A stretch of 64,000 nt of DNA from positions 3,584,001 to 3,648,000 of the forward strand of contig OZ252149.1 of NCBI GenBank assembly GCA_965248755.1, read 5' to 3'. Position numbers and translations under genes: made by a program. Under the pieces are notes generated by a model. The model was not told the origin of the DNA. It saw nothing but the letters and a program-made list of their open reading frames with translations, and did no database searches. Source of the stretch: Candidatus Latescibacterota bacterium (GTDB taxonomy: Bacteria; Latescibacterota; CBDEFO01). Below, one piece after another: positions 1 to 28,123 of the stretch. The stretch's first letter is position 1. Every line of letters starts with the position of its first letter.

Positions 1-839
1 GCACAGGGTTAGAAGTGACGCAGTTAGGCTACGGCGCGATGGCGATTTCACATACTGAAGATCCCGGGAGCATCATAAATGCAGTGCTTGACTCGGGCAT
101 CAACTTCATCGACACCTCACCCGATTACGGCTTGAGCGAGGAGCGCATCGGCGCCCATATCAGCCATCGTCGCGAAGAATTCTATCTGGCCACTAAATGT
201 GGGTGCAACATCGGCCCCGACGGGGCCCGGCAAGATCCTGGCCACCTGTGGACGGCAGATCGGCTGCAGAGGAACATTGACCAGAGCCTGGAGCGCATGA
301 AGACCGACCATGTGGACGTGCTGCAGATGCACAACCCTTCTGTGGAGCAGGTAGAGCAGGGCGGACTCGTGCAGGCCCTTCAAGAGATTCGAGAGTCAGG
401 GAAGACCCGGTTCATTGGTGTATCTTCCACGGCCCCGGATCTTCTGGCCTTTGCACGTATGGGCGTATTCGACACATTTCAGATTCCGTATTCTGCCCTG
501 GAGCGCAGGCACGAGCAAATGATCCAGGAGGCGGCCGATCTAGGGGCTAGCATCATCATTCGCGGCGGCATCGCCAAGGGGCATAGCGAGAGCGGTGACC
601 GCTGGACAAAGTGGGATCGGGCCGGGCTGAACGAGCTGATGGGCGATATGAATCGCTACGAGTTTGTGCTGCGCTTCACGCTTTCGCATCCGTCCTGCCA
701 CACTACCATCGTGGGCACCGCCGATCTGGATCACCTTCAGGCTAACGTGGCGGCAGCCAAGGCCGGGGCGCTTCCGACCGATGTCTATGAGCAGGCCAAA
801 GAGCGCCTGACTGAGATCGGGGAAGAGCCGGAGCTTTAG
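1..839 (+). CDS. Aldo/keto reductase, 5' end cut by window edge
   Basis: Frame is open upstream of GTG15 (TGLEVTQLGYG). AKR motifs IDTSPDYG, YLATKCG, DVLQMHNP, TRFIGVS. Confidence 0.9.
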   Translation, partial: TGLEVTQLGYGAMAISHTEDPGSIINAVLDSGINFIDTSPDYGLSEERIGAHISHRREEFYLATKCGCNIGPDGARQDPGHLWTADRLQRNIDQSLERMKTDHVDVLQMHNPSVEQVEQGGLVQALQEIRESGKTRFIGVSSTAPDLLAFARMGVFDTFQIPYSALERRHEQMIQEAADLGASIIIRGGIAKGHSESGDRWTKWDRAGLNELMGDMNRYEFVLRFTLSHPSCHTTIVGTADLDHLQANVAAAKAGALPTDVYEQAKERLTEIGEEPEL

Positions 840-923: not shown

Positions 924-2300
924 ATGAAATTGCACCTATTTGTTGCAGTTTGCTCTATTCTTTTGTCTACTCAAGGAGCTGCAGATATGGAGGCTGGCTA
1001 TAGAGATCGGGTACTTCCCTCGATGGATGGGGAGCCGATGTCGCTGGGACAGTACCGGGGCAGCAGGATTCTTCTGATGGATTTTGCCTCCTGGTGAGCG
1101 GGCTGCCGCAGGCACATACCAGGCTGGTATGGACAGGTGAAGCAACTGGTAGAGAACAGGCAGCTCGTCGTAGTGGGGCGCATCCAGGAACAGCATCCGG
1201 AGAGATGCCGCCTCTTTATGCAGTGGCAAGAGATGGACTGGCCGATTATGATCGATCCGTTGAACCTGCTGGAACTTACGGCTGTTCCCATTGTAACGGC
1301 CATTGATGAGTACGGAATAGGGCATGAGATTGCGCAGGAAAACTTTGAGGCGGAATTCATCCACAGGGATTTTGCGCCGCCTGAGCAACTTCAGGATCCT
1401 CTGGTAGCAGAAAGACCGGATCTGAACGTCCTGAAGGGCCAGACTGCTGCAGGTGGAGCTGAGACCTGGGGAGAGTACGGTGCAGCCCTTTATCTATGGG
1501 GAGGTATTGAGCGCATTGATGAGGCGGTGGAGGCCTTTCGGCAGGCTCTGGACCTGGAAGGAGGCGATGGGCGCTGGCACTTCCGCCTGGGGGTTTGCCT
1601 GCGGCGGCGCTATGAAAGTGAATACCGAAAGGCAAACGATTTTCAGGAGGCTGTGATAGAGTGGGGCCGTGCCCTGGAGCTGGACCCTAACCAGTATATC
1701 TGGAGACGGCGCATTCAGCAGTATGGCCCGCGTCTGGACAAGCCTTATCCGTTCTACGACTGGACAGAGCAGGCGCGAGAAGAAATCACGGGACGGGGTG
1801 AGGTCCCGGTGGAACTGACAGTTGAACCTGCCGGCGCCGAATATGCAGCGCCATTAGTAGATTTGGAGATCGGTGAATCAGCGGTGCAAAACCCCGATCC
1901 AGATGGCCGGATACGGCTGGATGAGGAGGGTCTTATTCAGATAGAAGTGGTCTCTGTGCCGGCGGTCATCCCACCGGGCGGCAGTGCACGGATACACGTG
2001 ATATTCCGTCCGAACCAGGCTGTAAAAGCTCACTGGAATAATGAAGTCGAAGACCTGAAACTATGGGTAGATCCCTTGCCTGGCTGGGAGCTGGAACAGA
2101 AGCTTCATATCGTAAAGAATCCATCTGAACCTGTAAGTCGTGAGACGCGCCGGCTGGATTTTGAACTGAGGTGTGCGTCAGAAACGCAGCCAGGAAAGGT
2201 GGCTCTGCCGGCGTACGCCCTCTACTTTGTGTGTGAAGATGTGGACGGAACTTGTCTGTTCAGGAGGCAGGATGTCAGAATACCGTTGCGGGTACGTTAA
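924..2300 (+). CDS. Secreted selenoprotein: TlpA/thioredoxin-like UxxC domain + TPR + DsbD-N-like C-terminal domain
   Basis: ORFs 849..1097 and 1137..2300 are in the same frame, separated only by TGA 1095-1097. Read-through gives FASW-U-AGC-RRHIP. Signal peptide from ATG924; C-terminal YFVCEDVDGTCL. Confidence 0.85.
1098..1136 (+). promoter_or_regulatory. Candidate bacterial SECIS element
   Basis: Perfect stem CATACCA(1115-1121)/TGGTATG(1125-1131) with a G-starting loop GGC, 24 nt after the UGA. Confidence 0.7.
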
Positions 2301-2341: not shown

Positions 2342-3265
2342 ATGACAACAGCAATTGAAAGACGCCCTTACGGCAGGACAGATGAGCATGTGAGTGTCGT
2401 GGTCCTGGGTGGCGGCTCTCTCGATAAGCACTCCTTTGCCGACGGCGTGGCCACAGTGCGCCGGGCGCTGGAGCTGGGCGTCAGCTATTTCGATACCTCT
2501 CCTTACTACGGCAGTGGACTATCGCAGGGAATCTATGGTGTGGCCCTGTAGGAACGAACGGAAGAGTATCTTCTGGCGACCAAGCTCGGATTTCTAGCCA
2601 GCCCGACCCGTTACCGTTCGCGTGACGCCCTGCGCACACAGCTTGATGAGAATCTGCGTTTACTGCGTCGTGACAGCGTGGGCACACTACAGGTGCACGA
2701 AGCCATGTTTCACTGCTGCTGGTCCGATGATGCTGCGCACAGCGCGCACGCACACATTCAACCTGAGTACGATTACGATTTTACCAGCGCGCCCATAATG
2801 CAGGTTCTAAGAGAAGCAAAAGCGCAAGGTTTATGTAGATTTATCGGGATCACGGGAAACAGTGCAGACCGAATTGCCCGTGTGCTGCGCCACGTGGAGG
2901 TGGATGCGTGTCTGGTCGCCTATAACTACTCGCTTCTGTCGCGGCAGGCGCGTCGGACAGCATTGCCTTTGGCTCGCGAAAAGGGAGTAGCTTTCATCGC
3001 AGCCGGGGTGATTGACTCCATCGGAGCTGATAAGGGGGAGAGTCCCGATGTCCGCTTGAACGACCTGCAGAAAGTCTCCGGCCTATCTCTGGTCGCTCTG
3101 ACGATCCGCTACTTGATAGCCGATCCAGCTATTACAACGATTCTGGTCGGCGCAGCGACGCCTGCCGAGATTGAAGAGAGCGTCGTCGCAGCCCAGGCTG
3201 GCGCACTTCCGCTTGACTTACATCAGGCCCTTGAAGAACTGGAAACGTCTCCTGACCCCGACTGA
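2342..3265 (+). pseudogene. Aldo/keto reductase with in-frame TAG at 2549-2551
   Basis: The same frame continues after the TAG with YLLATKLG...TLQVHE; RBS GGGAGG before ATG2342. Confidence 0.8.
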
Positions 3266-3329: not shown

Positions 3330-4278
3330 CTGACAGCAGCAATTGAAAGACGCCCTTACGGCAGGACAGAGGAGCATGTGACTGTCGTGGGCCTGGGTGG
3401 CGGCTCTCTCGATATGCAATCCTTTGCCGACGGCGTGGCCACAGTGCACCGGGCGCTGGAGCTGGGCGTCAGGCTATTTCGATACCTCTCCGGCCTACTG
3501 CCAGGGGGCTTCACAGGTAATACTGGGCAACGGGCTGGAGGGGTGCACGGAGCCATACCTGCTGGCAACAAAGCTGGGCTACCTTGCCGCGCCGGAGGAT
3601 TTCCGATCATGGGATGCCCTCCGCGCCCAGCTCTGGGAGAACCTGCGTGCGCTCCGCCGTGACAGCGTGGACACGCTGCAGGTGCATGAGGCCGATTATC
3701 CCTGCTGGTGGTCCGAAGGCGCAACCGGACGCGTTCAACCTGAGGATGATTTCGATTTTGACAACGCCCCGGTCATGCAGGTTCTGAGAGAGGCGAAGGA
3801 GCAAGGCCTGTGTCGTTTCATCGGGATAACTGGAAACAGTGCTGACTCCGTTGCCCACGTCCTGCGACACGTGGAGGTTGACACCTGTCTGCCCGCCTTC
3901 AACTATGATATGATATGGCGGGGGACCCGCCGCCAGGCTTTACCGGTCGCGGTTGAGAAGGGGGTGACATTGATCCTGGGTGGTGCCTTTCAGAATGCGC
4001 TTCTGACGGAGGTTCATGCCGAGTGGCTGAGTTCTCCCCCGGATTCCTGGACGCCCGAGATTCTGAACCGTTTTGAGCGGCTCTATGCGCTACAGAAGGA
4101 CTGCGGTCTTTCGCTTGTGACCATGGCCGTGCGGTTTCTAATGGCGGACCCAGCGGTCACAACGATTCTGATAGGGGCTGCAACGCCTGCCGAGATCGAA
4201 GAGAGCGTAACTGCAGCGCAGGCTGGTCCTCTCCCGCCCGACCTGCATCAGGCTGTTGAAGAGCTGGGAGTTCCGTAG
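3330..4278 (+). pseudogene. Aldo/keto reductase paralog with +1 frameshift near 3472
   Basis: gtcaGgctatttc versus gtcagctatttc in the upstream paralog. N-terminus in the frame of ORF 3171, remainder in the frame of ORF 3397. CTG at the position of the paralog's ATG. Confidence 0.8.
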
Positions 4279-27169: not shown

Positions 27170-28123
27170 CTACTTAATAATGTGGCTGCTCGGCGAGGAT
27201 TCGAACCTCGATAGACGGCTCCAAAGGCCGTAGTCCTGCCATTGGACGACCGAGCAACTTTTCGACCAGAAAGTATCCGCTTTCAGGCGATCTTCGGCTC
27301 TTTGGGCATCATCTTGTGATCCAAATATCCCATACACGGTCGAGCCGCTCCCCGAAAGGGAGGCACTTAATGCCCCGCAGGAGATCAGCTGTTCCTTTAT
27401 CTTAAAGATTTCGGGATAGGTCTGGTAGACTACGTTTTCAAAATCGTTTTCAAGGTGTTCGTACAAACACCTTGTGCCGCACTTATTAGCGAGCATAGAA
27501 TTTAAAAAACTAACATATTTTGTATCGTTTGTCAAGTCAAACGTTGACTCCGTGGCAATTTTCTTTCGATCTATCTCTTGGTACGCCCAGGCGGTCGAAA
27601 TCTGGATCCCAGGGTAGACTAGGACGTAGAAGGCGTCGTCGCTCCAGGAGATATAGTTCAGGATCTGACCCCTTCCCGATGCGATGGCTGTCCCGGGCTG
27701 CAGGAAAAAGGGCACATCTGAGCCCACACCAGACGCTAATTGGAAGAGTCCCTCGTAATCGAGGCCCAAATCCCAGAGCCTGTTGGCAGCTCTTAGAGTG
27801 GCAGCGGCATCTGAACTTCCTCCCCCGAGTCCCGCGGCCTTCGGAATGTTCTTTTGTATCGTTACCGAGACGCCCCTTCTTATCTTCAGGGTATCTTTGA
27901 GACTGGAGAGCGCCTTATGGACAAGATTCTGGGAATCGGTCGAAAGCGTCGGATCGGAGCAGACTATCTCTATTTCCCCGGAGGGGACCTCTTCTAAGAT
28001 CAAAAGATCGCATAGGTCTATGGTCTGAAGGACCGAGGCTATGTCGTGATAGCCGTCCTTGCGTTTTCCTTCGATCTTGAGACCCAAGTTTATCTTTGCG
28101 TATGCCTTTTCCTCTATTTTCAT
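27170..28123 (-). CDS. ispE: 4-(cytidine 5'-diphospho)-2-C-methyl-D-erythritol kinase
   Basis: AKINLGL, AGLGGGSSDAA, GSDVPFF, NDFE, LSGSGST. Confidence 0.95.
   Translation of the reverse strand: MKIEEKAYAKINLGLKIEGKRKDGYHDIASVLQTIDLCDLLILEEVPSGEIEIVCSDPTLSTDSQNLVHKALSSLKDTLKIRRGVSVTIQKNIPKAAGLGGGSSDAAATLRAANRLWDLGLDYEGLFQLASGVGSDVPFFLQPGTAIASGRGQILNYISWSDDAFYVLVYPGIQISTAWAYQEIDRKKIATESTFDLTNDTKYVSFLNSMLANKCGTRCLYEHLENDFENVVYQTYPEIFKIKEQLISCGALSASLSGSGSTVYGIFGSQDDAQRAEDRLKADTFWSKSCSVVQWQDYGLWSRLSRFESSPSSHIIK
27183..27256 (-). tRNA. tRNA-Gln(UUG), nested in the 3' end of the ispE ORF
   Basis: Acceptor stem TGCTCGG/CCGAGCA, anticodon loop CT-TTG-GA, GGTTCGAATCC T-arm, encoded CCA. Confidence 0.95.

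Follow-up and report, generated by a model that had tools for sequence, protein, structure and literature searches.

Between positions 924 and 2300 of the window (the whole 64,000-nucleotide stretch analysed here, from contig OZ252149.1 of a Candidatus Latescibacterota bacterium), two open reading frames follow one another in the same frame, separated by a single TGA codon. The question raised by this locus is whether it holds two genes, a broken one, or one gene in which the TGA is read as selenocysteine (Sec), and in the last case what the product might do. An initial annotation had proposed the last of these, with a possible electron relay inside one exported protein. Thioredoxin (Trx)-fold selenoproteins with a UxxC motif are the commonest kind of selenoprotein, and new families of them are regularly reported. 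Our comparisons indicate that 924-2300 is a real, mis-annotated selenoprotein gene, its product being an architectural variant of this known UxxC Trx-fold kind.

The in-frame TGA and its probable decoding

The frame consists of 57 codons, the TGA, 400 further codons and a TAA (Table 1). The TGA stands in the context F-A-S-W-TGA-A-G-C, so that the proposed joining of two ORFs at the first Cys of a Trx motif is borne out, and reading it as Sec gives a chain of 458 residues; in the Cys-containing TlpA-like genes of the same genome, a C aligns to the Sec column. A contig of run X1 (which may itself be the source of the assembly) covers 900-2320 with 0 differences, and TGA, rather than the TGC or TGT that sequencing reads might have revealed, is what the contigs show. 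The codon is also present in L015, a separate assembly that is 95% identical, and in 77 further loci; the TGA is therefore not an assembly error. RNA evidence amounts to no more than two short contigs from a relative. It is very likely that the two apparent ORFs form a single gene, whose product would be a 458-residue, probably exported selenoprotein, and on this comparative evidence Sec decoding of the UGA appears practically certain.

Table 1. Features of the locus, in window coordinates
Feature	Position	Strand	Basis
Single CDS, 458 codons if the internal TGA is Sec	924..2300	+	One-TGA full-length frame in 78 relatives
Predicted signal peptide (MK, hydrophobic core, QGA-A), cleavage site approximate	924..983	+	Hydropathy peak 2.7
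TlpA/ResA-type thioredoxin-fold domain, residues ~22-150	987..1373	+	Pfam AhpC-TSA, 29 bits
In-frame TGA, inferred Sec58, position 1 of U-A-G-C	1095..1097	+	Frame and homolog alignment
Resolving Cys61	1104..1106	+	TGC/TGT in 79/79
SECIS-like hairpin of bacterial type (stem of 6 bp, loop AGGCU), 23 nt downstream of the UGA	1115..1131	+	Conserved pairing
Pro122	1287..1289	+	Invariant in alignments
TPR unit, residues ~163-267	1410..1724	+	Pfam TPR_2 over cut-off; VIA Z 11-13 to TPR proteins
Ig-like beta-sandwich, divergent DsbD-N homolog, residues ~333-458	1920..2297	+	AF2 strands; HHalign
C437-x6-C444 pair in the last beta-hairpin, inferred second redox centre	2232..2255	+	79/79 TGA-bearing genes

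All four Sec genes that had been named as a check are present in the genome: selA (546 bits), selB (366 bits), selD (365 bits, itself with one in-frame TGA) and selC, i.e., a tRNA-Sec of 72 bits with anticodon TCA. selA is present in 73 of the 79 genomes behind the best 80 of 554 family loci, in 55 of 59 further carriers, and in 44/46 carriers versus 227/355 non-carriers of a Planctomycetota sample, figures to be read against a high background (selA is common in these phyla regardless of the family gene, at 68-72%), the non-independence of kin and the incompleteness of many genomes. The co-occurrence supports Sec decoding, short of proof. Elsewhere in the genome, at G000:C1:3726182 (+), lies another likely selenoprotein gene with the motif TTW-U-PLCG and a similar, AGUCU-loop hairpin 20 nt downstream, which may resemble the DUF3179 family.

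According to PMC13188914, a bacterial SECIS element has a loop of 3-9 nt with a G in its first two positions, a stem of 4-16 bp, a distance of 16-37 nt from the UGA and an MFE <= -7.5. The hairpin at 1115..1131 agrees with this consensus as given there (AGGCU, 6-7 bp, 23 nt, -8.4 kcal/mol), which answers the SECIS check suggested earlier. Its stem is formed by 1115-1120 and 1126-1131, or has 7 bp and a GGC loop if A1121 and U1125 pair, and the loop starts 23-24 nt past the UGA; the 7-bp hairpin with a G-led loop about 24 nt downstream, described in the initial annotation, is thus present and is also conserved in relatives. In the window sequence alone, its stability is at chance level (-8.4 kcal/mol for 1110-1145, z -0.99; -6.2 kcal/mol for the bare 6-bp stem), and a lenient genome-wide hairpin rule passes 1601 of 16272 TGAs, mostly noise. 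We judge the hairpin to be real because it is conserved across relatives, not from stability alone. The 6-bp stem pairs at 96.6% over 79 sequences, compared with 17-60% when the partners are slid, and RNAalifold recovers the same stem unaided. The codon of Val65 in the stem is GTG in 77/77 genes versus 39% of Val codons elsewhere in these genes, and this column is the tightest of 66 four-fold columns (median 0.50). In the window's lineage two G-C stem pairs have become A-U, with the amino-acid changes V>I and H>Y as the price; these compensatory changes count as one lineage, not two events.

A different account would take the TGA as a true stop, so that the locus would be a pseudogene or a pair of small genes, or would have it read as Trp or Cys under an altered code. 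Database records would fit a stop: all 120 listed homologs cover 76-87% of the query and, where aligned, start past the TGA, 143 of the best 150 representatives are without the Sec column, and in-frame GTG/ATG starts occur downstream of the TGA. The same records are what splitting by standard gene callers, as foreseen, would produce. A stop would, however, interrupt the Trx fold right at the catalytic residue, and would do so at one and the same codon in many phyla; the codon at this column is always TGA, never TAA or TAG (79/79). Decoding as Trp or Cys was rejected: the tRNA-Sec is the sole TCA-anticodon tRNA among 47, and TGA still terminates 37 of the 79 family genes, so it is not globally reassigned. 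We regard this account as very improbable.

Domain layout and the C-terminal cysteine pair

The three-domain reading of the earlier annotation holds in the sequence and structure comparisons. A hydrophobic N-terminal stretch similar to the predicted signal peptide occurs in 73 of the 76 genes scored. The Trx domain matches the PDB sequences of Etrx2, ResA, TlpA and CcmG, and its model superposes on ResA (2f9s) with VIA Z 12.6 and an rmsd of 2.3 A over 126 residues; Pro122 presumably occupies the cis-Pro position expected of a Trx fold. The TPR unit (Z ~12), with the TPR of NrfG among its fold matches (Z 11.4-11.6), continues into a strongly conserved PNQYIWRRR...KPYPFYDW segment. For the AF2 model built from 148 sequences, pLDDT is 93.3 and pTM is 0.91, and pLDDT values under 50 are confined to residues 1-20; this model supersedes one with less N-terminal alignment depth (pLDDT <50 there). 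The pTM suggests a rigid packing, which may hold both sites apart in the model. No transmembrane beta domain, as a complete DsbD/ScsB transporter would have, was found in the sequence or the model of the 458-residue chain.

We take residues 333-458 as a divergent DsbD-N (nDsbD/DsbD-alpha) domain on the basis of profile comparison. In HHalign, 155 family domains aligned to 37 PF11412-positive domains at 96.6% (E 6e-10, 119 columns) with both Cys in register, and the score was 57.6 versus <=12.9 for 30 column shuffles, the reversed profile giving 0.5%. A shallow-alignment HHalign run gave 4.9%. Pfam PF11412 (DsbD_N) itself matched 0/36 members at E<=0.1, its profile had no match over the whole genome, and the C-domain profile found nothing among PDB sequences. 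An nDsbD structure was absent among the best 50 fold matches, lists that are filled by TPR and Trx folds and are not counter-evidence. The Cys spacing is x6 in the family versus x4 in 26 of the 37 DsbD-N domains and x5 in E. coli.

Spread of the family and its non-Sec forms

A scan of GTDB genomes found 554 confirmed loci of this family, which is carried by hundreds of uncultured bacteria, and the locus-level counts given here rest on the best 80 of these. The initial annotation had suggested checking homologs for Cys or TGA at the Sec column; TGA is present in 78 of the 78 informative loci and Cys in none, the two uninformative loci being L065, which is cut by the contig end, and L025, a chimera. 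The motif [FW]ASW-U-xGC is kept in 79/79. L025:3750-5230 is an in-frame fusion, without the Sec site, of a signal peptide and an alpha/beta-hydrolase start (VYIHGGGW) with the family protein from about residue 85, for which recombination and assembly error are both possible. In an evenly drawn sample of Acidobacteriota (phylum of G004), 22 of 401 genomes carry the gene, with an in-frame TGA in 21/21 matches spanning the column; in the Planctomycetota sample (phylum of G050), drawn likewise, the figures are 46 of 401 genomes and 45 of 46 matches. Sixteen of these regions, largely from more distant matches, were fetched; 14 of them have TGA exactly at the column, 1 has Ser and 1 gave no reading. 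The search of residues 28-100 for full-length Cys relatives, a weak test, returned only the window's own protein among 5 candidates, and no C-x-x-C form of the family was seen in any search; selenoprotein finders that depend on Cys homologs would therefore tend to miss the family. Family records are almost always truncated "TPR/hypothetical" entries without the active site, so its function is invisible to annotation.

In a sample of 121 genomes from the window's own phylum, only 2 carry the gene, both belonging to the window's genus, while selA is present in 87 of 121, which suggests that the gene was gained laterally. The GC content around 924-2300 is 52-57% versus 49% genome-wide, and there are tRNA genes for Gln at window 27183-27256 (-) and for Met at G000:C1:3579803-3579879, about 4 kb ahead of the window start; higher local GC and nearby tRNAs are compatible with an acquired region. 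A cluster of aldo/keto reductase genes surrounds the locus (window 3-839, 2343-3265 and ~3330-4278). In the copy at 2343-3265 the frame is broken and contains a TAG, and the following copy likewise has a broken frame; in L015, copies of the first type are intact.

No conserved operon was found, as no neighbour is kept in >9 of the 81 stretches compared. Five of the 80 loci (L030, L040, L055, L070 and L094) carry a gene for a Prx-like FYRGxW-U-PYC selenoprotein 1.4-1.7 kb past the TGA, and a sixth, L092, has the same gene type at +5 kb; this downstream UxxC Prx-like protein is a candidate client. selA lies within 4 kb of the family gene in L036, L050 and L081.

Among the best 150 representatives, 7 are full-length and stop-free. 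Six of these have Ser at the Sec column (five S-x-x-C and one S-A-S-S) and one reads C-E-G-S; a stop-free match in G901, a near-copy of one Ser form, makes an eighth non-Sec row. The C-terminal Cys pair is kept in 0/8 of these rows, the sole Cys form (C-E-G-S) retaining the first C-terminal Cys only. Both Cys are kept in 12/12 distant TGA forms and in 133 of the 134 truncated entries with the C-terminus covered. The possibility raised earlier that homologs carry a non-Cys residue at the column thus has no case in the main family and is realised in a minority with Ser that is also without the second centre. A tree was built by a quick method from 85 rows, taking every second one of 125 eligible representatives and excluding the trait columns; its deep support is weak. 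On this tree, the 8 non-Sec rows require 4 changes, at least 2 of them forced by strong branches, i.e., 2-4 separate lineages. Y258, Y275, H370 and C444 are lost in 7/7 non-Sec forms and the core fold residues W371, W381 and R409 stay; these forms have diverged overall, with 21 of 146 conserved columns kept in <=1 of 7. The Ser forms look like decayed or non-redox offshoots. The sole Cys form, P0219 from a Planctomycetota MAG (HVS10026.1), retains a single Cys in each domain, in C-E-G-S and at the equivalent of C437, which is the pattern of a natural "trapping mutant".

The two redox centres have been lost together in evolution, and electron transfer between the two ends of the protein is likely on this pattern. 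Joint loss lends indirect support to the relay idea, and we hold it to be quite probable that both centres are redox-active and coupled.

Proposed electron flow and related systems

In DsbD, according to PMC2631958, the disulfide between Cys103 and Cys109 of nDsbD (Ig fold) is reduced through Cys461 of cDsbD (Trx fold), which has a pKa of 10.5 and is poorly nucleophilic before docking. PMC3322552 describes CcdA as a membrane-only class whose carriers deliver to Trx folds, and a route CcdA -> Trx -> alpha by way of separate proteins has been proposed there. For plant SOQ1, in which an NHL scaffold accompanies a Trx domain and a C-terminal domain (CTD) resembling nDsbD, the flow proposed in bioRxiv 2021.03.16.435614 is CCDA -> Trx -> CTD -> target. 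The present genome has a CcdA-type, DsbD_TM-only gene at G000:C1:933439-934713 (-) (PF02683 70.9 bits, 246-residue frame), which adjoins a Cys TlpA gene (WCGPC) and is a candidate electron donor. Because of these precedents and this gene, we favour a soluble relay from a gamma-like to an alpha-like domain. The best reading, which we consider somewhat better than even, is that the protein would be a likely exported, Sec-armed DsbD gamma-to-alpha relay with a layout like that of SOQ1; for the direction of flow, from the Trx to the Ig domain, our preference by analogy is likewise modest.

In such a relay, SelB and tRNA-Sec would decode the UGA by means of the hairpin 23 nt downstream, and the chain would be exported through its signal peptide. 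A CcdA/DsbD-type membrane carrier would then reduce the Se-S bond of U58-C61, and the selenolate would attack the disulfide between C437 and C444, in the way that Cys461 of cDsbD acts on Cys103-Cys109 of nDsbD. The reduced Ig domain could pass electrons to envelope clients, e.g., the neighbouring UxxC Prx-like proteins, with the TPR unit and the YIWRRR/KPYPFYDW segment serving as scaffold or client dock.

Two other accounts accept the selenoprotein and differ on its working. The protein may be an exported Sec-TlpA with a single redox site, acting as a reductase, isomerase or chaperone, in which the C-terminal Cys pair would be a structural disulfide of a binding domain. Exported Ig-like domains often contain structural disulfides, NEW3/NPCBM_assoc weakly matches 7 of 36 members, and among the Ig fold matches shown a glycosidase domain ranks first (Z 10.5), all of which would suit this account. 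A structural disulfide is unlikely to vanish along with Sec, yet the pair is gone in all eight non-Sec rows while W371, W381 and R409 stay, and its two Cys are in register with the catalytic pair of DsbD-N; we consider a purely structural role improbable.

Electrons may also flow the other way through the same selenoprotein, the DsbD-N-like Cys pair recharging the Sec site and the U-x-x-C reducing a client held by the TPR unit; an apocytochrome, a Prx/Msr or a metal-chaperone site could be such a client. The joint loss of the two centres is as compatible with this direction as with the favoured one, and the closest matches of the Trx domain, ResA, TlpA, CcmG and Etrx, are reductases that face clients. 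TPR units bind clients, the TPR of NrfG being among the fold matches here, and nDsbD reduces CcmG/TlpA-type proteins according to PMC3322552. The Ig domain would, however, require its own upstream Trx-fold reductant, whereas CcdA-type carriers feed Trx folds (PMC3322552) and the carrier of this genome is CcdA-only; moreover, where Sec occurs in DsbD-N-containing frames, it is located in the gamma-like Trx part. Reverse flow is thus unlikely in our assessment, though it carries more weight than the structural account.

The pairing of a Sec-Trx site with DsbD-N recurs in other frames, in agreement with the relay from the Trx to the Ig domain. Among 39 DsbD-N loci examined, 30 are from Planctomycetota, and in 4 of these the DsbD-N frame also contains UxxC within a C-terminal Trx-type motif; 3 loci encode a fusion of DsbD-N with a Prx-like domain that bears U-P-[YF]-C. 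L147, L149, L153 and L156 (Planctomycetota) have long DsbD-N frames with the C-terminal motif FTGxx-U-x-x-C; these are likely complete DsbD proteins whose gamma domain contains Sec, and may belong to the GOS family "Trx-like 2" (cd02953). L092 (- strand, ~1260 nt upstream of the TGA), L099 and L101 carry a Prx-like F[FYH]RSADW-U-P[YF]C motif about 130 residues before a DsbD-N domain, and one GOS read appears to carry the start of such a Prx-like/DsbD-N fusion.

The family shares with DsbD and with CcdA plus TlpA/ResA systems a Trx-fold site and an Ig-fold Cys pair homologous to DsbD-N, here joined in one chain. Unlike DsbD, it is without a membrane domain, runs in the order Trx to Ig with the TPR between, has a TlpA-type Trx domain, and has Sec in place of the attacking Cys and a Cys spacing of x6. 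Like plant SOQ1 and human NHLRC2, it places a repeat scaffold after the Trx domain, followed (in SOQ1) by an nDsbD-like domain with a Cys pair; it differs in having a helical TPR for the NHL propeller, Sec for Cys and a predicted bacterial envelope setting, so that the likeness is an analogy of layout.

The UxxC entries in the accessible part of Table 1 of PMC13188914 (119 families) include "Thiol-disulfide isomerase-like" (cd02966), "Redoxin family" (PF08534) and "Prx-like thiol:disulfide oxidoreductase" (PF00578). The family resembles the UxxC Trx-fold selenoproteins described there in its TlpA/redoxin fold, its UxxC and a SECIS right after the UGA; compared by listing, none of those entries has a TPR or a UxxC/DsbD-N layout, and members may sit under generic names. 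Our literature search found no description of a Trx(UxxC)-TPR-DsbD-N architecture, though BSepDB may file members under generic names. TPR is not mentioned in the accessible parts of PMC1088965, PMC9312934, PMC13326102, PMC12013277, PMC13745706, PMC2398784 and PMC7539508. GOS Dataset S1 contains two ASWUAGC reads, each from a short protein with a single domain; four other family signatures do not occur in it, and the signatures are also absent from the deep-Sep supplements. No NCBIfam family was matched over its cut-off, the best being NF041054 at 52.8 bits against a cut-off of 300. NF041054 was the best NCBIfam match for 18/18 members tested, and it had no match over the cut-off in the 5 genomes searched. 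This "ResA-like WAxxUGC motif-containing protein" resembles the family in a ResA-like Trx domain followed by a region matching the TPR part (residues 22-264). The family differs in its motif, W-U-A-G-C rather than WAxxUGC, and in a C-terminal Ig domain that NF041054 leaves uncovered; ordinary Cys TlpAs of the same genome score equally high on the Trx part of NF041054.

More broadly, and tentatively, with a little less than even confidence, the family may represent a widespread, essentially selenium-only gamma-alpha relay of the envelope, a layout counterpart of SOQ1/NHLRC2, in which loss of Sec leads to no Cys fallback, both centres being dropped while a non-redox scaffold survives. Together with the Sec-bearing DsbD gamma-like domains and the second, Sec-Prx/DsbD-N fusion, it might then point to an unrecognised reducing network, based on selenium, that operates in the envelope of Planctomycetota, Acidobacteriota and their kin. 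If the relay is real, it would provide a single soluble protein in which the effect of Sec on interdomain thiol-disulfide exchange can be measured, and a simple bacterial model for the putative mechanism of SOQ1/NHLRC2.
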